The translations under genes were made by a program, and so were the position numbers. A DNA stretch of 64,000 nt from a virus. Its lineage: Duplodnaviria > Caudoviricetes. The stretch spans positions 58,951 to 122,950 of IMG/VR virus record IMGVR_UViG_3300017913_001781. The stretch is one strand, 5' to 3'. Shown in pieces: positions 11,370 through 50,212 of the stretch (position 1 is the stretch's first letter; the number at the start of each line of letters is the position of its first letter). The notes below the pieces were generated by a model. It was not told where the DNA came from, made no database searches, and saw nothing but the letters and a program-made list of their open reading frames with translations.

Positions 11370-12878
11370 GTGGAACTTAGCTTAACAGAAAATAATCAGT
11401 TTCTAAGAGTAGATTCAGCGACAGAGTTAGAAATAGAACAACTCAACATCTCACTTACTAAGAGAATAGAATCATGGCGATTCAATCCTTTGGTCAAGCG
11501 AGGTGTCTGGGATGGTTACGTCTCGTATATTAAAGATGACAAATGGATTCCTTCTGGTTTATGGAAAGAAATTATGGATACGTGTAAGGAGTATTCATAT
11601 GACCTTAAATTAAACGGAGTCACTGATCTTTTTGATAAAAGCGTTAACCAAGAAGAATTTGAAGCTTGGGCTTTAGACTTCTTTAAAGACTCTGAGATTA
11701 CGCCACGCGACTATCAAATGGATGCAGCTTTTAACATCTTAAAGTTTAGAAGATGTTTGGCAGAATTAGCTACCTCAGCAGGTAAGACTCTTATTTCTTT
11801 CTTAGTAGTAGCATATATGCTTGAAAAGAAAAAGGCCAATAAGGTCTTATTTATAGTACCTAACGTTTCACTTGTAGTTCAAGCTACTGAAGACTTTATG
11901 GACTATAACTATAAGAATCAGGTTAGTATTAAGATTCAACAAATCTACTCAGGCCAAAAGATTAGAGCTGGCCGTAATGTTGTTATTGGAACGTATCAAT
12001 CTCTTGTTAAAAAGAACAAAGAGTATTTCGAGCAGTTTGATGCTGTTATCATTGACGAGACACATAAGGCTAAGTCTAATTCTATTAAGACTATCTTGCA
12101 GAAGTGTGTATCGGCTAAGTATCGTTTTGGTTTGTCAGGAACTATTCCTAAAAGAGGTAAGTTAGACAGACTCACTTTGATGGCTTACACCGGTCCTGTT
12201 ATTACAGAAGTCAGTGCTAATTTCTTGCAAAAACAAGGACATATTGCCGGTTGCAAAGTTAAAGTCATTGAAATGGATTATGCGCCAGATTCTACGAAAC
12301 AAGCTTTCATGGAAATGGCAATGAACAAATACGAAAGCAAAGACGTATTTAAATTTGAACAAAACTACGTAATAAATTCCCCCGGTAGACTAAACTTTAT
12401 TACGAATGTCATATCTAAAATTCCCCGAAATTCCCTTGTCTTGTTTCATCGCATCGAACATGGTAAAAAGCTTTATGAGAAGCTCAGACAGGATAGCGAT
12501 AAGGTTGTCTATTATGTAGATGGAGGTACTGATAAGGACATAAGAGAAGAATACAAGAAAAAGATGGAAGCCGGTGAAGAAGTAGTAATTGTAGCTTCAT
12601 ACGGCACTTTCTCTACTGGAATTTCTATTAAGAAAATACACAACATTTTCTTCACAGAATCATTCAAATCCGAGGTCATTATTAGACAATCTATTGGTCG
12701 TGGACTTAGACAACATAAATCAAAAGAAGAAGTTATTATTGTAGACTTTGTTGATGATTTATCTTCTCCAGAGTGGTTCAATTACTTAATGAGACATGCT
12801 AATGCGAGGCAGCGTATTTACAAGGAACAGAAGTTTAGCTATAGCGTGAAAAAGGTTCAATTTGAAGGAGATATATAG
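11370..12878 (+). CDS. uvsW: SF2 DNA helicase UvsW
   Basis: WDG, PRDYQ, LATSAGKT, IIDETH, GLSGT, STGISIK and QSIGRGLR motifs. Confidence 0.92.
   Translation: MELSLTENNQFLRVDSATELEIEQLNISLTKRIESWRFNPLVKRGVWDGYVSYIKDDKWIPSGLWKEIMDTCKEYSYDLKLNGVTDLFDKSVNQEEFEAWALDFFKDSEITPRDYQMDAAFNILKFRRCLAELATSAGKTLISFLVVAYMLEKKKANKVLFIVPNVSLVVQATEDFMDYNYKNQVSIKIQQIYSGQKIRAGRNVVIGTYQSLVKKNKEYFEQFDAVIIDETHKAKSNSIKTILQKCVSAKYRFGLSGTIPKRGKLDRLTLMAYTGPVITEVSANFLQKQGHIAGCKVKVIEMDYAPDSTKQAFMEMAMNKYESKDVFKFEQNYVINSPGRLNFITNVISKIPRNSLVLFHRIEHGKKLYEKLRQDSDKVVYYVDGGTDKDIREEYKKKMEAGEEVVIVASYGTFSTGISIKKIHNIFFTESFKSEVIIRQSIGRGLRQHKSKEEVIIVDFVDDLSSPEWFNYLMRHANARQRIYKEQKFSYSVKKVQFEGDI
12870..12877 (+). promoter_or_regulatory. 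Late promoter GATATATA
   Basis: Recurrent octamer shortly upstream of structural genes. Confidence 0.7.
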
Positions 12879-12902
12879 AAAAAGTAAAATATTACTATAA
12901 TC

Positions 12903-13532
12903 ATGAATAAATTACAAGACTTTAATAGCTTTGCTTCTGCTAAAAGACAAGAGGCTCAAATCAAGTTAGAGCAAGAGCAAGAAGCGAAAAGAACATCTAG
13001 TGCCGAAACATTTAAATCTCTTTTAGCAGAATACGGCGTAACAGATCTTAATGAATTAGATGAAGAACAAAAAACTTCTTTCTTTTTAAAGTTAAGAGGC
13101 GGAGAAGTAAACGAGGACGTTAACTATATGATTGATAGATTAGAAGAGGCATATTCAGTTACTGAAGCTGAAGTTAAGTCTGAAGAAGAGTTTCAAGAAT
13201 ATGCAATGACTGTCTTGAAAAAAGCATTTGGTGAAGATTTTGATGAAGCTAAAGCACAAGAAACTATCGATGGTATTCTTGGTAAGGCAAAAGGAGACTA
13301 TGGTGCAGCTATAGGTATGCTAACATCTTCTTTAGGAGAATCAGTAAAGGTCAATGAATCCGATATTAAATCAGACGAAGATTTTAAAGAGTATGCATTC
13401 TCAGTTCTTCAAAAAGCATTTGGAGACGAGTTTGACGAAGCAAAGGCTCAAGAAGTAGTAGACGGAATTCTATCTAAAGCCGGCGGTGATTATGGTGAAG
13501 CTGCGGGTATGCTACAAAGCTCACTTGGATAA
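12903..13532 (+). CDS. Putative internal head protein with two tandem 58-aa domains
   Basis: Late motif at 12870, leader MNKLQDFNSF, and an internal duplication. Confidence 0.55.
   Translation: MNKLQDFNSFASAKRQEAQIKLEQEQEAKRTSSAETFKSLLAEYGVTDLNELDEEQKTSFFLKLRGGEVNEDVNYMIDRLEEAYSVTEAEVKSEEEFQEYAMTVLKKAFGEDFDEAKAQETIDGILGKAKGDYGAAIGMLTSSLGESVKVNESDIKSDEDFKEYAFSVLQKAFGDEFDEAKAQEVVDGILSKAGGDYGEAAGMLQSSLG
13164..13529 (+). repeat. Two 58-codon intragenic repeats (13164-13337 and 13356-13529)
   Basis: EAEVKSEEEFQEYAMTVLKKAFGEDFDEAKAQETIDGILGKAKGDYGAAIGMLTSSLG versus ESDIKSDEDFKEYAFSVLQKAFGDEFDEAKAQEVVDGILSKAGGDYGEAAGMLQSSLG. Confidence 0.95.
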
Positions 13533-14821
13533 TGAATAAAATCCTATTATATAGAGATTTTTTAAATGAAAGAGCGCAGCCCATAGACATGGGCTATTCT
13601 CTTGTTATGGAGGGCGGTGCAGCTGGTCATATGAATCATCCATTTGATGATAAGTCTTTAACTTTTGGAGACTTTAAAAAGATTGTAGAATACGGTCTTA
13701 GAGGAGAACTTAATTTCGAAGAAGCTGCTACTGAAAAAACAGATGGACAAAACGTATTTGCCACTATTCAAGATGGTGAGGTAAAGTTCGCTAGAAACAA
13801 GACAGAACTAATCACGCCAATGGACTTGAATACATTTAAGCAAAAATTTGATAACCATGCAAGCGCTATGGTTGAAGAGACTTTTAAGTTGGCCGCTGAA
13901 GATTTAGCATCTCAGTTAATGAAATTACCAAATAATGTTCAAGAAGAAACATTTGAAAATGGACTTAATTGGATGAATATGGAATTGATCTATTCTAGAA
14001 ACCCAAATGTTATTTATTATGACAGAGATGTAATTCAATTCCATGGTATCAAGAAGACTGATGGTCAAGGTAATATTATCGGAGAAGATAATAAACCAGC
14101 ATCTTCATTAGTTAAAGCATTGGCAGCAGTTAAAGCGAATGTTGGTAAAACATTTACAATAATTCCCCCACAAATCATTAAGCTTGGTAAAGACATAGAT
14201 TTTGAAACCAATAGAACTAAATTCTTAAAACAAATTGAAGTACTTAGAAATAAGTATAATTTAACCGATGCTGATGAAGTATCGCGTTATCATGAGATGT
14301 GGTGGAGAGATCAAATTGAAGAAACTTTTGGCGAATTAACACAAGACCATAAAGAAGGGCTTTTACTAAGATGGGCTTATGGTGATAAAAAGACTCTTAA
14401 CCTAAGACAGCTTAAGAAAGAGGTTACTTCAGACCAAATGGATGCTATTAAAAAATATGATAAAGAAGACGTTAAGAAAAAGTACAAAGAAAACATTAGA
14501 CCATTTGAAGATTTATTCCTAGAATTGGGTTCTATTATTCTTAAGAACGCCTCTAACTTTGTCGCTGCTAATCCAAGCGCAGAAATGCAAAGATTACATA
14601 ATCAAATTAGAACAGAAGCTGAAAAAATTAAAAAAGGAGGCGACGTTAATCAAATTAAAAAGGTTGAAGCAGAGCTTGCAAGATTAGAAAGAATCGGAGG
14701 AGTAGAATCTATTATGCCAACCGAGGGTATAGTATTCGTGTATAAAGGTAAAACATTTAAGCTTACTGGAACTTTCGCTGCTATAAATCAACTTATGGGA
14801 ATTATAAAATACGGCAGATAA
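13532..14821 (+). CDS. RNA-ligase/capping-enzyme-fold covalent nucleotidyltransferase (DUF6267-like) with a capsid-targeting leader
   Basis: Motif I EKTDGQN, FARNK, III NMELIY, IIIa IQFHG, IV EGIVF, V FKLTG. Leader MNKILLYRDFLNE. Confidence 0.65.
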   Translation: MNKILLYRDFLNERAQPIDMGYSLVMEGGAAGHMNHPFDDKSLTFGDFKKIVEYGLRGELNFEEAATEKTDGQNVFATIQDGEVKFARNKTELITPMDLNTFKQKFDNHASAMVEETFKLAAEDLASQLMKLPNNVQEETFENGLNWMNMELIYSRNPNVIYYDRDVIQFHGIKKTDGQGNIIGEDNKPASSLVKALAAVKANVGKTFTIIPPQIIKLGKDIDFETNRTKFLKQIEVLRNKYNLTDADEVSRYHEMWWRDQIEETFGELTQDHKEGLLLRWAYGDKKTLNLRQLKKEVTSDQMDAIKKYDKEDVKKKYKENIRPFEDLFLELGSIILKNASNFVAANPSAEMQRLHNQIRTEAEKIKKGGDVNQIKKVEAELARLERIGGVESIMPTEGIVFVYKGKTFKLTGTFAAINQLMGIIKYGR

Positions 14822-16662
14822 TGGCACTTCAAGATCTAAGAAAACATTTTAATTCAGTTAATAGAAACGAGTTTATGGCTTTGTTAAAGCAAAGATGCTT
14901 GGTTACTGAAAAAATTCAAGCTTCTTCCTTTCATGTTAGAAATACAGATAAAGGCTATGACTACTATAAAAGCGGTTCTAAAACACCTATGAATAGGGTT
15001 GATAGAACAATAGTTAGGTATTATGAAAGTGCTATTGACTATTTTAGATCTATTCCTAAAGAAGTTAGAGAAGATATGCCAAAGGATTGGAAATTTGGTT
15101 TTGATTACATGACTGAAAAAAGAACAGTTGATATTCAATACGATGCTCTTCCCAAAAACAATCTTATATTAACACATATTCAAGTTTTAAATCCAACTGA
15201 CCCAACTCAAATTAAGAAAGTAATTAGAGACCCTAAAGTTCTTGAAAAATGGTCTAATATGTTACAAGTTCAGGCTCCTCCTATATTATTCAACGGAGTT
15301 TTAGATTCTAATCAAAAAGACATGTTAGTTGAGCTTTTAGAAATGAATAATGAATCATTTAAGAACGTATTTGAAAATACTTCCTTTACTAGAAAGGTCT
15401 ATAGTATTTTTAATCACATGGCAAATAAGACCGCTCTCAATGAAGGTTTAGATGGAGATATAGATTCGCTTATAGTTTCTTTTATAGACAAAAAGAATAT
15501 TAAGAACTTTAAACTTGGTAGATTTGATAAAGTTGAAGAAAAAGAAAGAGAAGCTTCCGACATGTATCAAATTACTATTCTAGATCTTGTCGAGTATATG
15601 ACTCAGTTCAATATGGATGATGTAAAATTGGTAGAAGAAGATACAGACTTAAGATACATTGAGCTAGTTTCAGAGATATTTAATCAATATATGTCTAAGA
15701 ACGCCGTCAAGTATATAGGCGCTGAGTTTGATTCGGCGGGTTTTTCTAGTAGAAAGGGATTTGAACTCAATAAAGACTTTATCAAAAACGAAGGCACGGT
15801 AAAGCTAATTCAAAACGAAGATTTATCGGAATTATTTAAGATTATGTTGGGATCATTTAGAAAAAAAAGAACAAAAGAAACCAAGATCATAAATGCCGAC
15901 CTTATGTCTCAAATGAACGAAATTGTAGAAAAGATAGAGTCCGCCGTCTTTGCAAAAAAGAATGAATCAGAGATTATGACATTTAATACTTACTTAAAGC
16001 AAGAAAAGCTAAAAACCCAAGTTAGTCCAATTATTGAAGCGCTAACAGTCGAACATCCTGATCAGGGGGCAAAGCCGGTTAATATGTTTGTTGGTAGATT
16101 CCAACCTTTTACATTAGGACACGCTAAAGTTATAGACGCTATTCATAAACAAAACGGTTATCCCGTTGTTATTTTCTTAGTTAAGTCAAAGACTAAGAAA
16201 AAAGAGGATGCATTTAAAAGACCCTATTCTGAAGAACTACAAATTGAAATGTTGGAAAAACTAAAAAAGAAGTATCCAATTGAAGAGGTATTTGTTATAC
16301 CTTCTGCAGCCATCGACAAAATGTTTAATGAAATGAGACCTAAATATGAACCGGTTCTTTGGGGAACTGGAACTGATAGATTAAAGGTTTATAGCTATCA
16401 AGTAGATAAGCAAGAATATAGAGATGATTTAGGCGTCAGAGATGATTTTGGACTGTTCGAGATACCAAGAACTGGTAAGAATATTTCAGCAACTCAAGTT
16501 AGAAATGCAATGTTAGCTGGAGATGAAAAAGAGTTTAAGAAGCTAACACCGAGGGAGATTCATTCGATGTATTTAAAACTTAAAGATACGTTAGAGCAAT
16601 CAATGGCAACAATGGAGTCCACGTCAAACATTATGACTTTCAATCAGTTCTTAAAATCCTAA
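14821..16662 (+). CDS. Fusion of a degenerate ligase-fold domain and an HxGH-family (cytidylyltransferase/NMNAT-like) nucleotidyltransferase
   Basis: N-terminal TEKIQASSF, APPILFNG, DIDSLIV, NFKL. C-terminal FVGRFQPFTLGH, GTDR, ISATQVR. Confidence 0.7.
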   Translation: MALQDLRKHFNSVNRNEFMALLKQRCLVTEKIQASSFHVRNTDKGYDYYKSGSKTPMNRVDRTIVRYYESAIDYFRSIPKEVREDMPKDWKFGFDYMTEKRTVDIQYDALPKNNLILTHIQVLNPTDPTQIKKVIRDPKVLEKWSNMLQVQAPPILFNGVLDSNQKDMLVELLEMNNESFKNVFENTSFTRKVYSIFNHMANKTALNEGLDGDIDSLIVSFIDKKNIKNFKLGRFDKVEEKEREASDMYQITILDLVEYMTQFNMDDVKLVEEDTDLRYIELVSEIFNQYMSKNAVKYIGAEFDSAGFSSRKGFELNKDFIKNEGTVKLIQNEDLSELFKIMLGSFRKKRTKETKIINADLMSQMNEIVEKIESAVFAKKNESEIMTFNTYLKQEKLKTQVSPIIEALTVEHPDQGAKPVNMFVGRFQPFTLGHAKVIDAIHKQNGYPVVIFLVKSKTKKKEDAFKRPYSEELQIEMLEKLKKKYPIEEVFVIPSAAIDKMFNEMRPKYEPVLWGTGTDRLKVYSYQVDKQEYRDDLGVRDDFGLFEIPRTGKNISATQVRNAMLAGDEKEFKKLTPREIHSMYLKLKDTLEQSMATMESTSNIMTFNQFLKS

Positions 16663-16668
16663 TATATA
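16661..16668 (+). promoter_or_regulatory. Late promoter AATATATA
   Basis: Recurrent octamer. Confidence 0.65.
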
Positions 16669-16693
16669 GAAAAAGAAAATAAACTACATAAAT

Positions 16694-19189
16694 ATGAAAT
16701 TCCAAGATTTCCTAAATGAAAAGAAAGTAACGTTAAAGAGACGTTACACTGAAAATCATCCAGCGATGGAAGCTGGTTTAACGGCAAGAGTCAGAAACAA
16801 AATGATAGAAGCGGTTGCTGATGGCACGTTAACTCAAGAAGAGTTTAATTCTATTTTATCTGAATTAAGCAATGATTCTAAAAGATGGATGACCAGAAAT
16901 GCAAAATACTTTAATGTATCAGAAGACGGTATCACATTATCTAGATTTGGTAAAAGAGTTCTTAAAACATTTGCAATTAATGAAAATGAAGGCTTTATTT
17001 TAGAATCTACGCGTTCTCAAATTGGTATCATTGATAGAAGAGGCGTTATTCACTCTACATATGTTCATAGCGATGGTTATCCAGAAGGTGTAGGCCAAAT
17101 GGCAAAAGATCATTTTTCTGACACTAAAAAGATGAAAGAACTATTAAAACTTGGAAAGAATGGTATTTCATATTTAGAGCCTGGTATTGAAGGTGGTGAA
17201 GGACACCACTTTAATACACCAATCGATGGTCAAACAGTATTTTATGGTAGAGATAGAGGCGAAACTAAATACAATATGACTCAAAAAAGAAAGTTAGAAG
17301 ATCTAGATGATTATCTACAAGATGTTGCCTTTGATGGTGCAGAATATGTTTATCTTTGGGATGAAAAAGAAAAAGAGTGGAAGTACGCAGTTGCTAAAAC
17401 TAAAGACGGTAGACAAATGGGTCTTCAAGTCCTAGAGTCTGAGTTAATAGAAGATGATGTTATAGAAGAAGGTAAATATGAAGATATGTTAGATAAAGGA
17501 GATGGACATATTCACTTTATTTTAAAGGATGAAAAGACTGCTGAAAAATTAGCTGATAAAATTGAAGAGGAAGGTTTAGGTGATTGTGATTTTTATCCTC
17601 AAGGTAAAAAGATTTACTTAAGAGTTTCTTTAACAGGGCAGGAAAATAAAGCAAATTCTAATATACCTAAGATAGAAAAGATTGTAGGTATGAAAGCTAA
17701 GTCTGGCTCACCAGAAACATGGGATGGTTCTATGTTGGGTGAAGGTAGAAACGCATTTATTACTGCAGCTAGAGCAGCTAAAGCAGAAGGTTTAAAAGAA
17801 TTTGAATTTAAGGGTAAAACCTTTCCGGTTACAGTAAAAGATGTAAGTGAGGAAGCTCCCGAAGTAGAAGAAACAAAAGAAGTTACAGAAAATAAATTAG
17901 TCTCAGAATCATTTGGAAAGTTTATTGCTTCTCTAAATGAAGAAAATGTTAATGAATGGGGAACTTCTGATAGCTATGCTATGAGTGAAGTAATTCACTA
18001 TATGATTAGAAAGCCTAAAAACATGCCATCTCCGTTTGATAAAAAACTAAGAGATGCGGCTGAAAGTGCAGTTGATAGATATTGGGATGAGTGGCCTGAA
18101 TACAAAACCAATTATGAAGGTTTAGTAGACGACGCCGTTAGAACTTATTTAAGACATTTTCATAGAGAAGAGTTTAAATTGGCCCAAAGAATGTTTGAGC
18201 CAGTAGAGTCAAATTCTATTGAAGTAGGAGAGGACGTTAACGAGGCATTTAAGTCAGCCAAATTAGCTCAACTTTTTAATACTAAAATATCTCGCAGTTG
18301 GTCTTCTAGCTCATTAAAGGACTTACCTAAAGCTTTTTATAACATGGCTAATATTGCTTTAGATAAAGTAGAGGATGAAGATATAATTGATATGAGTGCA
18401 GCTGAAGCGCATGCTATAACTAGAAAGGACAAAGATAATCGCTATGTTATATTTTACGTAGTAGATCAACAAAAAGAAAATCCGCATGCTGGTTACGAAG
18501 GGCAAAAAACTATCCCAGCTGGTATTTTGGCTATTGTTAAGGGTAATCAATTTCAAGGCATGGCATGGGGCCGTAATTCATCCGGCCACGGCCGAACTTT
18601 AGCATCTAGCGAACCTGGTGATAGCGTAGGTATTAGTAAAAAGTATAAAGGCTGGGATTCAACGGGCCTTTACAATCCTAAGAGAATTTCAGAGGTTGCA
18701 GATAGAGCAGTTGTCTTAGATACTGCGGTACTTAGAGATAAGTATTCAACTGCTGGAAAGATGGCTGATAGAGCAGCCGCTAAGAAAGGTGCAATCGCTT
18801 TTAAATCAGATAAAGATTTCAAAAGAGAAAATATGAAGCGATATAAAGAGATCTTAGCAGACAAAGCAGCTAACTTACCTCTAGATAAAATGGTTAAGGA
18901 CGCGGTAGATGCTTTAACTTTACAAATTCAACAGGGTCTAGCTAAAGGTGAAGTCGAAAATGGAGAGCCCTTAATCGGTAGAAATTCAAAGGGTAGAGCA
19001 GTAAAAATGAGAGACGCCGCTAATCATATGTCTCAGATTTTAGATAATTACTCAAACTATGTGAGATATTCTAATGAAGCTCAAAGCGGTCTTATTGGAT
19101 CTAGCTATTACGAAACAAGAGTTAAGGACGAAGCCAAGCTTATCAAAGACAGAATTGATAAAATTGAAAATATGGACTATGCCTGGTAA
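16694..19189 (+). CDS. Multidomain putative internal head polyprotein
   Basis: Late motif at 16661 and leader MKFQDFLNE. Domains are separated by acidic (I/L/V)xE-rich linkers and include an STRSQIG..YVHSDGYPEGVG domain and an EGRNAFITAARAAKAEGLKEFEF motif. Confidence 0.6.
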   Translation: MKFQDFLNEKKVTLKRRYTENHPAMEAGLTARVRNKMIEAVADGTLTQEEFNSILSELSNDSKRWMTRNAKYFNVSEDGITLSRFGKRVLKTFAINENEGFILESTRSQIGIIDRRGVIHSTYVHSDGYPEGVGQMAKDHFSDTKKMKELLKLGKNGISYLEPGIEGGEGHHFNTPIDGQTVFYGRDRGETKYNMTQKRKLEDLDDYLQDVAFDGAEYVYLWDEKEKEWKYAVAKTKDGRQMGLQVLESELIEDDVIEEGKYEDMLDKGDGHIHFILKDEKTAEKLADKIEEEGLGDCDFYPQGKKIYLRVSLTGQENKANSNIPKIEKIVGMKAKSGSPETWDGSMLGEGRNAFITAARAAKAEGLKEFEFKGKTFPVTVKDVSEEAPEVEETKEVTENKLVSESFGKFIASLNEENVNEWGTSDSYAMSEVIHYMIRKPKNMPSPFDKKLRDAAESAVDRYWDEWPEYKTNYEGLVDDAVRTYLRHFHREEFKLAQRMFEPVESNSIEVGEDVNEAFKSAKLAQLFNTKISRSWSSSSLKDLPKAFYNMANIALDKVEDEDIIDMSAAEAHAITRKDKDNRYVIFYVVDQQKENPHAGYEGQKTIPAGILAIVKGNQFQGMAWGRNSSGHGRTLASSEPGDSVGISKKYKGWDSTGLYNPKRISEVADRAVVLDTAVLRDKYSTAGKMADRAAAKKGAIAFKSDKDFKRENMKRYKEILADKAANLPLDKMVKDAVDALTLQIQQGLAKGEVENGEPLIGRNSKGRAVKMRDAANHMSQILDNYSNYVRYSNEAQSGLIGSSYYETRVKDEAKLIKDRIDKIENMDYAW

Positions 19190-48262: not shown

Positions 48263-50212
48263 ATGGCAGATTTAAAAAATTTATTGATAGTCGAGAGATC
48301 GTCTGGCAGCTTATCAGTTGCTGGTGAATCTAAAGACTATGTGCTAGAGGGTATTTTTGGAGAAATTGACTCTAAAAATAAAAACAATCGTATTTATACA
48401 GAAAGTGAATACGTCCCCCAAATTGAAGCACTACAAAATAAAATCAAGTCGTCTAAGCTTCTAGGAGAATTAGACCACCCTCAGCAATTTGATATTTCAT
48501 TAAAAAATGTTTCTCACGTGATCGAGGAACTTTTTTATGATGGAGACTCTAAGCAAGTAAGAGGTAGAATTAGACTACTTGATACTGATGCTGGAAGACA
48601 AGCTAAAGCGCTGGTTGATGCTGGTGTCCCATTGCAAATTTCTTCTAGAGCTGCTGGTACTGTAGAGTCCAGCGGAAAAGTAAAAATCAAGCAACTATTT
48701 ACTTATGACTTAGTTGCAGATCCTGGTTTCGAGAATGCCGAACTCTCAAGAGTAAATGAGTCATACGGTTTCTCTAATGATGAAAATTTATTCATCTACG
48801 AGATCGGATCTTCTCAAGTATTAGAAACAACAAACTCAAATCAAAATAATATTGAAAAAATGGAAGAATTTGTAAACGCAAATGACTTCAATAAGTATAC
48901 AGAGTACTTGGCTGAAGAGATTAAGACTCTAAAGAACTCTATCGATGAAGTCAAGACAGGATCTGATAACACTCCAGTTACAGAACAAATCCAAGAGGTT
49001 ATTGCTCATAACGATCACTTAGTTGAAAACATTAACAGAATCTCCGAGTACACTCAGTACTTGGCAGAACAGTTAGACAAGAATATTCAATATACTGAAT
49101 ACGTTGCTGAGCAGGCTGATAATGGTATTCAATACGCTGAGCACGTCGCAGAAAAGTTGGATCAGTCTATTCAATACTCTGAGCATATTGCAGAAAAGGC
49201 GGATCAAGGCATCCAATATTCTGAGCATGTTGCAGAAAAAGTTGATCAGTCTATTCAGTATACTGAAACTGTCGCTGAGTCAGTAAACAAGTTAAAAGAG
49301 TATGCTAACTATATTGCAGAAGCTAGCAACGAAGGTTTCACCGAGAACGATAAGTTGATTGAATATGTTGACTACTTGAAAGAGAACCTAGAATCAGTTA
49401 CAGAATATGCGCAATACATTGCTGAGTCTATCAACGAGAATCTAGTTACTGAAGAAGAAGGTACTGAGGCTGGTAAAGAAGTTGAAGATCTTGAAAAGGA
49501 CACTGAGGTTGGAGATAACTCTAAAGAAGGTGATGTATCTAAAGACATTGAAGATGCAACTACTGATGCAGAAGATCTAAAAGCTGATCTTAAAAAGTCA
49601 GACTCTGAAGTTGAAGATGAGACTAAGGATGGAGAAGATCCAGCTAAGTCTGATGTTGGCGAAGACGGAGCTCATGATCCACTAGAAGCTTACAAGACTG
49701 AGATTAGTTCTAAGCTTGATACTCTAGTTGAGAAGGCGCTAATTAAAGAAAACGAAAACCCATCATTCTTTAGAATCGTTTCAGGTTCTACTCAGTCTAA
49801 GTACAATGAGTTGAATGAGGATGCTAAGAAAGAAGTTAGACAAGCTGTTGCAAAGCGCGGTTTTATGACTGAGGCACAAATCGTTTCTCTAATCGAGTCT
49901 TCGCAGTTGATTGTTGAAAACAGAAATGCAGAGCCATTTGTTCTATCAGCAATGCCTTCTGAGTACAGAGAGCAATGGGAATCATTGTCAGAATCTAAGC
50001 AAGCACAAGTTCTTGCTCAGTCTAAGTACTTTACTCTAAACACTGAGTATCAAGTAGCTAACTTCTGGCAAACTAGAGACCTAAGAGAGTCTAAGCCTAA
50101 TATGGAAAGACTTGAAATGGTCAACGAAAAGAAGTCAGTTCAAGAAGAGACTAAGCCAATGTACGATGTTTCTGCTTATGCTGATCAATTAAAAAAGAGA
50201 TTTAAGAAATAA
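48263..50212 (+). CDS. Prohead protease (gp21-like) fused to scaffold (gp22-like)
   Basis: Protease motifs LEGIF, NKNNRIY, LGELDHP, VSH, ISSRAAG and YDLVADPGF, followed by about 450 aa of acidic coiled coil with 14-aa repeats. Confidence 0.88.
   Translation: MADLKNLLIVERSSGSLSVAGESKDYVLEGIFGEIDSKNKNNRIYTESEYVPQIEALQNKIKSSKLLGELDHPQQFDISLKNVSHVIEELFYDGDSKQVRGRIRLLDTDAGRQAKALVDAGVPLQISSRAAGTVESSGKVKIKQLFTYDLVADPGFENAELSRVNESYGFSNDENLFIYEIGSSQVLETTNSNQNNIEKMEEFVNANDFNKYTEYLAEEIKTLKNSIDEVKTGSDNTPVTEQIQEVIAHNDHLVENINRISEYTQYLAEQLDKNIQYTEYVAEQADNGIQYAEHVAEKLDQSIQYSEHIAEKADQGIQYSEHVAEKVDQSIQYTETVAESVNKLKEYANYIAEASNEGFTENDKLIEYVDYLKENLESVTEYAQYIAESINENLVTEEEGTEAGKEVEDLEKDTEVGDNSKEGDVSKDIEDATTDAEDLKADLKKSDSEVEDETKDGEDPAKSDVGEDGAHDPLEAYKTEISSKLDTLVEKALIKENENPSFFRIVSGSTQSKYNELNEDAKKEVRQAVAKRGFMTEAQIVSLIESSQLIVENRNAEPFVLSAMPSEYREQWESLSESKQAQVLAQSKYFTLNTEYQVANFWQTRDLRESKPNMERLEMVNEKKSVQEETKPMYDVSAYADQLKKRFKK
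49046..49321 (+). repeat. 42-bp (14-aa) tandem repeat, about 6.5 copies
   Basis: EYTQYLAEQLDKNI / QYTEYVAEQADNGI / QYAEHVAEKLDQSI / QYSEHIAEKADQGI / QYSEHVAEKVDQSI / QYTETVAESVNKLK / EYANYIAE. Confidence 0.92.

Follow-up and report, generated by a model that had tools for sequence, protein, structure and literature searches.

Two overlapping genes of an uncultured marine jumbo phage raise the question of which reaction is served by a protein with an intact RNA ligase active site (P1) when it is encoded next to a second protein (P2), in which a degenerate domain of the same fold is fused to a nucleotidyltransferase of the HIGH superfamily. Both come from a viral contig of 122,950 bp (IMG/VR record IMGVR_UViG_3300017913_001781), the completeness of which is about 41% (CheckV estimate); its right-hand 64,000 nucleotides, which contain the two genes, are referred to as the window, and positions are window positions unless otherwise stated. 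The joining of RNA ends is the best-supported role of the pair, and the chances are slightly better than even that the two coupled genes, with their three enzyme modules, constitute a viral module for RNA end-joining and repair.

The coupling of P1 and P2 through TAATG, which had been claimed in a preliminary description of this DNA, is borne out, since the open reading frames (ORFs) 13532–14821 and 14821–16662 overlap by this sequence (14817–14823). A 209-residue ORF that precedes P1 is joined to it in the same way (13528–13534), and because both junctions read TAATG, three genes are translationally coupled, not two. The features of P1 are the following:

13532–14821, plus strand: P1, a covalent nucleotidyltransferase of 429 residues with the RNA ligase fold (AlphaFold2 model and VIA structural matches).
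13733–13747, plus strand: motif I of P1, EKTDG, with K69 as the predicted acceptor of AMP.
14201–14695, plus strand: all-helical domain of P1, residues 224–388, inserted after motif IIIa and ahead of motifs IV/V (from the modelled secondary structure).
14723–14770, plus strand: motifs IV and V of P1 (E398-G399 ... K410-x-T-G).

The AlphaFold2 model of P1, which was built on 20 diverse homologues, has a predicted local distance difference test score (pLDDT) of 85.5 and a predicted template modelling score of 0.81. Its best Foldseek matches are all ATP-dependent RNA ligases, headed by T4 Rnl1 (E = 1.7e-3). In VIA alignments the closest structure is NgrRnl of Naegleria (Z 9.9, 188 residues, root-mean-square deviation (rmsd) 3.9), followed by the fungal Trl1-LIG (9.1), TbREL1 (8.6), T4 Rnl1 (8.4) and T4 Rnl2 (8.2); in all, 36 RNA or DNA ligase entries are found at Z 9.9–7.0, with 160–199 residues aligned. 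DNA ligases rank lower (Z 5–7), and no capping enzyme appears among the 50 matches listed. Because these Z values are middling, the fold assignment leans on the motifs as well. Every motif quoted in the preliminary description is present in the translations of the two proteins, and in P1 these are EKTDG (68–72), FARNK (86–90), NMEL (149–152), QFHG (169–172), EGIV (398–401) and KLTG (410–413). Motifs I, III, IIIa, IV and V thus occur in order (K69-T-D71-G72, E151, F170-H171, E398-G399, K410), their numbering being assigned by this order and by strand position in the model. The claim that P1 retains all the motifs of covalent nucleotidyltransferases is upheld by their strict conservation among 268 family domains, with identity down to approximately 35%: K69, D71, G72, R88, G144 and K410 are invariant (268/268), E151, E398 and G399 are found in 267 and H171 in 264.

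No sequence model leads to this assignment. Neither Pfam, PHROG nor NCBIfam gave a match to P1, the P1 profile had no meaningful match among the sequences of solved structures in the Protein Data Bank (PDB), and a scan of the phage's own genome with PF09414 and PF09511 was empty. A lead from a protein atlas to DUF6267 gained no support, as 0/20 family members match it and the own-genome scan was empty. Given that no curated RNA ligase family model matches, P1 is a new family within the covalent nucleotidyltransferase superfamily. It is also a large one: a full HMMER scan of 1.84 billion representatives retrieved 1,802 clusters at E ≤ 1e-3, of which 496 reach E ≤ 1e-30 (clusters at 50% identity from public metagenomes, almost all viral), and the cellular homologues amount to 17 loci among 185,579 species genomes, all of them on contigs of metagenome-assembled genomes. 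A family of this size that is still unnamed, with a perfectly conserved active site and an unusual nested-domain topology, deserves attention, and it should be easy to study: its small proteins look soluble, and which active-site mutants to make is obvious.

The comparison with two of the closest known systems, T4 Rnl1 (which acts with Pnkp in the repair of tRNA anticodon loops) and the Trl1 ligase domain of fungi and plants, illustrates what is familiar and what is new in P1. The three share the fold, the KxDG lysine and the order of motifs III, IV and V, and in all of them an N-terminal element lies upstream and an all-helical accessory domain is present. P1 resembles the T4 system in being phage-encoded alongside a PNKP-type phosphatase and a P-loop kinase, and Trl1 in the fusion to a kinase, which is found among P1 relatives too. 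On the other hand, P1 has no detectable sequence similarity to either ligase (PF09511, as stated, does not match), it carries a practically invariant element, GGxxGHMxHPFD (residues 28–39, about 98% conserved), as well as a leader resembling a capsid targeting sequence (CTS), and its helical domain is inserted before motifs IV and V instead of following motif V. Alignments with solved ligases skip this helical stretch, so that the 188 residues aligned to NgrRnl span model residues 24–422. To our knowledge, such a nested arrangement has not been seen in described ligases. There is no OB domain after motif V, where a single helix (415–427) ends the model; the helical domain is the only extra one. 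Judging from these motifs and from the model, P1 would be a catalytically competent ATP-dependent RNA ligase in which K69 takes AMP and E151, E398-G399 and K410 complete the site, and the GGxxGHMxHPFD element and the helical domain of approximately 165 residues would probably provide contacts with nucleotide and RNA. Finally, neither the T4 nor the Trl1 system includes a HIGH nucleotidyltransferase, the usual partner of P1, which in the phage described here is part of the adjacent protein:

14821–16662, plus strand: P2, 613 residues, in which an Rnl2-like domain is fused to a HIGH nucleotidyltransferase (ORF, Pfam, Foldseek and VIA).
14821–15531, plus strand: residues 1–237 of P2, a degenerate nucleotidyltransferase domain of the RNA ligase type (EKIQAS, D95, DIDS, K231), from Foldseek and VIA comparison with T4 Rnl2.
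15538–15972, plus strand: residues 240–384 of P2, a helical domain that closes the ligase-like module at its C-terminus (from the modelled secondary structure).
16075–16620, plus strand: residues 419–600 of P2, a domain of the cytidylyltransferase (HIGH) superfamily, GRFQPFTLGH ... ISATQVR (PF01467, E = 4.8e-10).

The model of residues 1–405 of P2, built with 24 homologues, has a pLDDT of 85.9, and its Foldseek match is T4 Rnl2 (E = 8e-8, probability 1.0). Residues 1–237 superpose on Rnl2 with a VIA Z of 9.7 (191 residues, rmsd 3.9), on Trl1 with 9.3 and on NgrRnl with 9.0, and they are followed by a helical C-terminal domain as in the nick-sealing ligases of the Rnl2 and Rnl5 types (PF09414). 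Structure prediction therefore sustains the ligase fold that had been proposed for both proteins. As with P1, the sequence is distant from known families: the Pfam scan gave no PF09414 match for P2, two relatives (P0510 and P0503) reach 26.1 and 26.2 bits on this model, with a cut-off of 27, and a profile search with the alignment of the ligase-like domain found no meaningful match among solved structures. BLASTP between P1 and P2 finds nothing significant, and alignment of the two family profiles with hhalign gives E = 0.14 and a probability of 0.4, with the motif I regions aligned; a common origin of the two ligase domains would rest on the modelled fold, not on sequence. The prediction of a complex of P1 with residues 1–405 of P2 scored 0.01, which is no answer and counts neither for nor against the heterodimer suggested in the preliminary description.

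The catalytic positions of P2 are weakened, not erased. Motif I of T4 Rnl2 is EKIHGTN, and P2 reads EK-I-Q-A-S-S-F at this place (EKIQA, residues 30–34), without the His and Gly; the Glu of motif III is replaced by D95 and the EG of motif IV by D215-S216 (DIDS, 213–216), and the motif V lysine is K231. The canonical pattern (K-x-H/D-G, motif III Glu, motif IV E-G) is consequently absent, P2 reading K31-I-Q-A, D95 and D215-S216. Across 241 ligase-like domains of the family, K31 is kept in 91% and replaced by Q, N or M in 21 (9%), at position 95 there are 121 D and 102 Q (42%), position 215 is acidic in 240 with one Asn, and at position 216 there are 176 S and 44 G. E30, R62, Y68, Y107, P111, Q165 and N317 are invariant, and in the helical C-terminal domain D247, R278, Y279, N317 and K348 are invariant or nearly so. 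The term pseudo-ligase, which the preliminary description applied to P2, is thus plausible for the family and less certain for this copy, in which K31, D95, D215 and K231 are conservative replacements, not losses. The surroundings of the domain vary: many P2-type ligase domains (P0409, P0481 and about 60 others) stand at the N-terminus of proteins of 900–1140 residues, the 500-residue C-terminal parts of which match no Pfam family, and in one relative (P0498) a PD-(D/E)XK nuclease domain takes the place of the usual C-terminal part.

Enzymes of the HIGH superfamily transfer a nucleoside monophosphate to a phosphate. The corresponding domain of P2 scores 40.2 bits on PF01467 (cut-off 21), and when its family profile is compared with the PDB the nearest entry is the archaeal nicotinamide mononucleotide adenylyltransferase (NMNAT) MJ0541 (1f9a, E = 1.7e-3), followed by the NadM-Nudix protein 2qjo. 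With these enzymes, as with the phage protein NatV, it has in common the superfamily and the motifs GRFQPF-x-x-GH (GRFQPFTLGH, 425–434) and ISxTxxR (I555-S-A-T-Q-V-R561). It differs from them in having neither a Nudix nor a kinase partner domain, in being fused to modules of the RNA ligase fold, and in scoring far below the NMNAT cut-offs of NCBIfam (28.1 vs 181.2 bits for TIGR01527, 31.5 vs 127 for NF002243 and 25 vs 397 for NF003786). The first position of the HxGH motif is T in 131, H in 27 and N in 5 of 163 relatives; this P2 reads T431-L-G-H434, and a Thr in place of the first His is also found in phosphopantetheine adenylyltransferase. G433 is kept in 160/163 and R561 in 159/163. The domain is therefore a member of the superfamily that cannot be recognised as an NMNAT: of the NMNAT-like HxGH fusion that had been described, the superfamily and the nearness to NMNAT hold, whereas the motif itself is TLGH and the scores are far below the NMNAT cut-offs.

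What these modules are joined to in other viruses is more informative about their role. The P1 module is found mostly as the C-terminal domain of viral proteins of 600–2000 residues, and 59 long P1-bearing proteins were scanned with Pfam. The HIGH domain (PF01467) is fused to P1 in 29/59, a P-loop kinase of the Zeta_toxin/AAA_33 type in 5/59, the head domain of PolyA_pol/CCA-adding enzymes in 3/59 (best E = 1.6e-64, one of them also with an HD domain) and a 2H phosphoesterase in 1/59. A second tally over the fetched proteins, based on purpose-built hidden Markov models (HMMs), found the HIGH domain fused to P1 in 29 proteins, in both orders, and in 138 to a ligase domain of the P2 type. No protein of this set joins P1 to a P2-type ligase domain, and a relaxed hmmsearch revealed none of the latter hidden in the long P1 fusions. 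The Microcystis phage Mel-JY01 offers an example of a HIGH-P1 fusion. A module of about 50 residues without family assignment (PVNVGDTIL.GRFKNKK..VKSIGKDE.G.PTINGK) recurs in the long P1 fusions, often right before P1 (P0348, P0303, P0313, P0255, P0257, P0258).

As separate genes, P1 and P2 follow each other in this order in 80/80 related IMG/VR loci, and the same order is found in the complete 462-kb genome of the huge phage LR756500.1, in which the pair is 33–36% identical to the one described here and lies again downstream of UvsW. In two close relatives (L062, L065) the HIGH domain is a separate gene between P1 and the gene for the P2-type ligase; this gene carries a tag of its own upstream of the ligase-like gene, with an extra tagged ORF of 294 residues in between (L065, 5971–8744, and L062), and the modules seem to have been shuffled at the tag-coding sequences. 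The statement that similar pairs occur in T4-like phages was not confirmed among cultured phages: in a phage collection (tblastn, E ≤ 1e-5) only three records match P1, and eight match P2. The literature searched contained no description of a link between the P1 family and HIGH nucleotidyltransferases.

Standard parts of RNA repair are a kinase, a phosphatase or 2H esterase, a CCA-adding enzyme and a ligase (PMC7824862). RNA end-joining is favoured because relatives of P1 are fused to a kinase, a CCA-adding enzyme and a 2H esterase, and because the same genome encodes a stand-alone PNKP-type HAD phosphatase (HAD_PNKP, E = 2e-31) and a stand-alone AAA_33 kinase of 146 residues. We infer that the substrate is RNA, and the following sequence of events can be proposed. 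As a first step, the phosphatase of the PNKP type and the P-loop kinase that the phage encodes separately would heal the broken ends, after which P1 would seal the 5'-phosphate/3'-OH breaks, most plausibly in tRNA cut by anticodon nucleases of the host. The Rnl2-like domain of P2 would probably bind or position the broken RNA ends and may seal activated ends, and the HIGH domain would use a nucleoside triphosphate (NTP) to adenylylate a phosphate acceptor, either the terminal phosphate of broken RNA or a small co-substrate such as nicotinamide mononucleotide (NMN). The RNA-terminal phosphate as acceptor of a HIGH enzyme is a hypothesis, and would be new chemistry; the pairing of P1 with HIGH domains may thus hide a new chemistry of nucleic acid ends. 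Phage RNA ligation and repair is an activity of a known kind; what is new is an undescribed and abundant ligase family with a nested helical domain, its degenerate Rnl2-like partner and its recurrent association with a HIGH nucleotidyltransferase.

At least P1 would also be delivered with the phage DNA. The preliminary description considered both proteins to be tagged for packaging into the head, and the relevant features are these:

13532–13570, plus strand: N-terminal CTS-like tag of P1, MNKILLYRDFLNE, ending in L-N-E (YRDFLNE at residues 7–13; pLDDT below 50 in residues 1–31).
15973–16005, plus strand: linker of P2, IMTFNTYLKQE, an internal CTS-like motif (residues 385–395) ahead of the HIGH domain (pLDDT below 50 around 380–386).
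16630–16659, plus strand: C-terminal motif of P2, IMTFNQFLKS, tag-like (residues 604–613), which also ends the stand-alone 426-residue form in relatives.
48263–50212, plus strand: head maturation protease (T4 gp21 / S77), 649 residues (PF03420 at 48.8 bits, above cut-off, 48329–48676; phrog_207, E = 1.9e-35).

In T4, IPIII needs no more than its first 10 residues to be targeted to the capsid, with residues 4 and 7 serving for targeting and residues 8 and 10 for cleavage by gp21, and Alt is trimmed at both termini (PMC9026906). Like the CTS of these gp21-processed head proteins (IPI–III, Alt), the leader YRDFLNE of P1 has aromatic residues three positions apart, an aliphatic residue, any residue and Glu; a gp21/S77 protease is encoded in this genome too, and the leader recurs in several neighbouring genes. 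The pattern [FY]xx[FY][LIV]xE occurs within the first ten residues of 7/131 ORFs of the contig, with 0.49 expected (approximately 14-fold), and a looser form in 12; the tag-bearing ORFs include small proteins that flank the protease gene. The tag is kept in 113/130 stand-alone P1 homologues, that of LR756500.1 starting with MKFLKSYEEFLNE directly before the domain, and the stand-alone HIGH gene of a relative (L065) starts with a tag of its own, MKYLKLFETFINE. In the long P1 fusions, a hydrophobic-x-Glu site lies at most 13 residues upstream of the P1 module in 58%, with 20% expected. The differences from T4 are that the leader of P1 is offset by three residues, that the motif of P2 is only internal and C-terminal, and that the cargo would be RNA-processing enzymes instead of anti-restriction or ADP-ribosylating proteins. 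The N-terminus of P2 cannot be read as a tag because it is a folded part of the ligase domain (pLDDT 83–93, aligned to T4 Rnl2 from residue 1). The proposal that both proteins are tagged is therefore retained for P1, given its leader and the gp21-type protease, and not for the N-terminus of P2, whose tag-like motifs are confined to the linker and the C-terminus. In the C-terminal half of the protease itself there are six YxxY[LIV]AE repeats that resemble the N-terminal tag motif, and this protein may be a fusion of protease and scaffold.

A further indication comes from a promoter-like motif, TATATA[GC]AAA, which precedes the coupled genes:

12872–12881, plus strand: promoter-like motif TATATAGAAA, 22 nt upstream of the first of the three coupled genes.
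16663–16672, plus strand: second copy, before the tagged 831-residue ORF 16694–19189.

The exact 13-mer TATATAGAAAAAG is found only at 16663 and 12872. The shorter motif has six exact sites in the window (1.28 expected by chance), all on the plus strand and 18–40 nt before a start codon; they lie at 12872, 16663, 31740, 43491, 52373 and 63078 and precede the ORFs that begin at 12903, 16694, 31789, 43518, 52407 and 63111. Among the genes that it thus precedes are the first of the three coupled ones, the tagged ORF that comes next, the ORF behind the gene for the major head protein and the gene for the tail sheath (63111), and it probably acts as a promoter. A candidate of another type, the T4 late promoter TATAAATA, was rejected, not being enriched (6 sites vs 10 expected).

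P1 is probably packaged, given its T4-type leader ending in L-N-E, the presence of the leader on separate HIGH genes and the promoter-like motif that it has in common with structural genes; it would be taken up by the prohead and trimmed by the protease of the gp21 type, and would be injected along with the DNA. Packaging of P1 is plausible, and by analogy so is that of the HIGH module. Known injected cargo comprises anti-restriction proteins, ADP-ribosyltransferases and RNA polymerases. If the capsid targeting proposed here is correct, RNA repair enzymes would extend this list, and their delivery together with the DNA would be relevant to the escape of marine phages from tRNA-cleaving defences.

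Several observations weigh against an injected RNA repair module. No RNA ligase sequence model reaches P1, the assignment of which consists of a predicted structure with middling Z values and the order of the motifs, and the role given to the HIGH domain is a guess. P1 and the P2-type domain are separable: by tblastn at E ≤ 1e-5, five huge phages have a P2-type domain with no match to P1, and LR756508 and Mel-JY01 have P1 without the P2-type domain. LR756500.1 encodes two canonical PF09414 ligases, so the pair is not needed there for ordinary RNA sealing. No tRNA genes are found in the 123-kb contig and no anticodon-nuclease target is known for this phage, and the location of the pair in a replication region, near UvsW, primase and polymerase, is such that the substrate could be DNA or something else. 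As for packaging, the tag before the P1 module is lacking in the long fusions (2/125 have it), and it could serve a purpose other than capsid targeting.

The preliminary description had offered three functions, RNA repair, the capping of DNA ends and the rebuilding of NAD+. The first is favoured by the fusions and by the PNKP-type phosphatase and kinase, the second has found no support, and the third is disfavoured as the main role by the gene content of LR756500.1. In the proposal of NAD+ supply, the HIGH domain would be a genuine NMNAT and would restore NAD+ from NMN and ATP, either against NAD+-depleting defences or in order to feed an NAD+-using step of RNA repair, be it the removal by Tpt1 of the 2'-phosphate that a Trl1-like P1 leaves or the reaction of a P1 that depends on NAD+. 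Among solved and curated proteins, the nearest relatives of the domain are, after all, the archaeal/NadM NMNATs, its GRFQPF-x-x-GH and ISxTxxR motifs are NadM-like, P1 does resemble Trl1-LIG (Z 9.1), and LR756500.1, in which the pair is retained, has genes for Tpt1/KptA (E = 5e-48) and for Nampt (E = 6e-60). Next to this Nampt, however, LR756500.1 has an adjacent NMNAT-Nudix protein of 310 residues (a weak PF01467 match and a clear Nudix match) and a third HIGH protein, so a further NMNAT would be unneeded for salvage; simple NAD+ salvage is unlikely because this phage keeps the pair and yet has its own Nampt and NMNAT-Nudix. Moreover, the known NAD+ salvage enzymes of phages pair with Nampt, not with ligases (PMC7824862), the scores are far under the NMNAT equivalog cut-offs (28 vs 181 and 31.5 vs 127 bits), and the fusion of HIGH domains to ligase-fold modules in 167 fetched proteins suggests a common substrate with the ligase. 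The supply of NAD+ in any of these forms is thus considered improbable. Since LR756500.1 contains, besides the pair, Nampt, NMNAT-Nudix, the third HIGH protein, Tpt1 and the two PF09414 ligases, the P1-P2 pair is an extra, specialised set in that phage. The NAD and RNA repair genes of LR756500.1 (W01) lie at 25.7, 35.6, 45–48.5, 82 and 363 kb.

Another way of looking at the fusion is to divide the ligation pathway between the two halves of P2, so that the HIGH domain adenylylates 5'-phosphate RNA to AppRNA, by the chemistry that converts NMN to NAD+, or joins NMN to a 5'-pppA end to form NAD-capped RNA, and the Rnl2-like domain, for which the lysine is dispensable, holds the end and only seals or binds. 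The ligase-like domain retains E30, R62, the acidic residue of motif IV (240/241) and the motif V lysine, with D or Q in motif III and DS in place of EG in motif IV; the motif I lysine is lost in 21/241, among which 17 carry a fused HIGH domain whose (T/N)xGH is intact. Fusions of HIGH to ligase-fold domains occur, furthermore, in both orders. According to a review, no post-transcriptional NAD-capping enzyme is known, and enzymes of the NMNAT type have been proposed as candidates for this function, never shown and as yet untested (PMC8131947). This P2, however, keeps K31, so that a lysine-independent route is not forced here, and 45% of P2-type domains have no fused HIGH domain. Also counting against this division, we know of no HIGH-superfamily enzyme that acts on a polynucleotide phosphate. 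Such a split pathway is accordingly held to be unlikely, and doubtful too, to a somewhat greater degree, is its extension to an injected kit for RNA ends, in which the HIGH domain, together with a lysine-independent ligase-fold domain, acts on polynucleotide ends, adenylylating 5'-phosphate RNA or NAD-capping 5'-triphosphate RNA. If this were true, RNA ends would be ligated or capped along a route that dispenses with the enzyme-AMP intermediate, and the HIGH domain would be the first enzyme of its superfamily to act on RNA termini. The position of the genes, with UvsW, primase and SSB on the 5' side and a DNA modification cassette and DNA polymerase on the 3' side, has suggested instead that P1 is the phage ligase for Okazaki fragments or for the repair of modified DNA, that P2 is an accessory and that the N-terminal motif is unrelated to packaging. 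The synteny with UvsW is kept in LR756500.1, and no canonical DNA ligase turned up in the 41%-complete genome, although no search was aimed at one. Against this stand the structural ranking, in which DNA ligases come below all RNA ligase families (Z 5–7 vs 8–10), the lack of an OB domain in P1, the RNA-end enzymes that are its fusion partners elsewhere (CCA-adding enzyme, polynucleotide-kinase-like, 2H), and the fact that in other lineages the P1 protein adjoins terminase and portal, not replication genes. A DNA ligase is hence regarded as very unlikely. In two such lineages, the P1-bearing protein is encoded just upstream of the large terminase and portal genes (L092, 9395–17333; L001, 5302–11425).

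On the 5' side of the pair are genes for SSB, primase and a UvsW-type helicase; on its 3' side the DNA modification cassette is accompanied by ribonucleotide reductase and a family B polymerase that is split, and further downstream lie the genes for the portal, for the head maturation protease of the gp21/S77 type and for the major head and tail sheath proteins. The nearest counterpart of the major head protein is that of LR756500.1 (50% identity), followed by those of the Lak megaphages (45%). The first gene of the coupled trio is the following:

12903–13532, plus strand: acidic ORF of 209 residues with an internal duplication, TAATG-coupled to P1, with a syntenic counterpart ahead of P1 in most of the 80 loci.

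This ORF has no family match and holds two copies of a repeat of about 50 residues. Its counterpart is much longer in many relatives (598 residues in L181, 4166–5962), with inserts that resemble the 831-residue ORF 16694–19189. Outside the window, the polynucleotide kinase-phosphatase of the phage is split into HAD_PNKP and AAA_33 genes 14 kb apart (G000:C1, 6459–6935 and 20963–21403), and a second, weak HAD_PNKP match is located at G000:C1 2873–3100. The phage also encodes, outside the window at G000:C1 21633–22553, a UV damage endonuclease of the UvdE type (PF03851, E = 4e-59).

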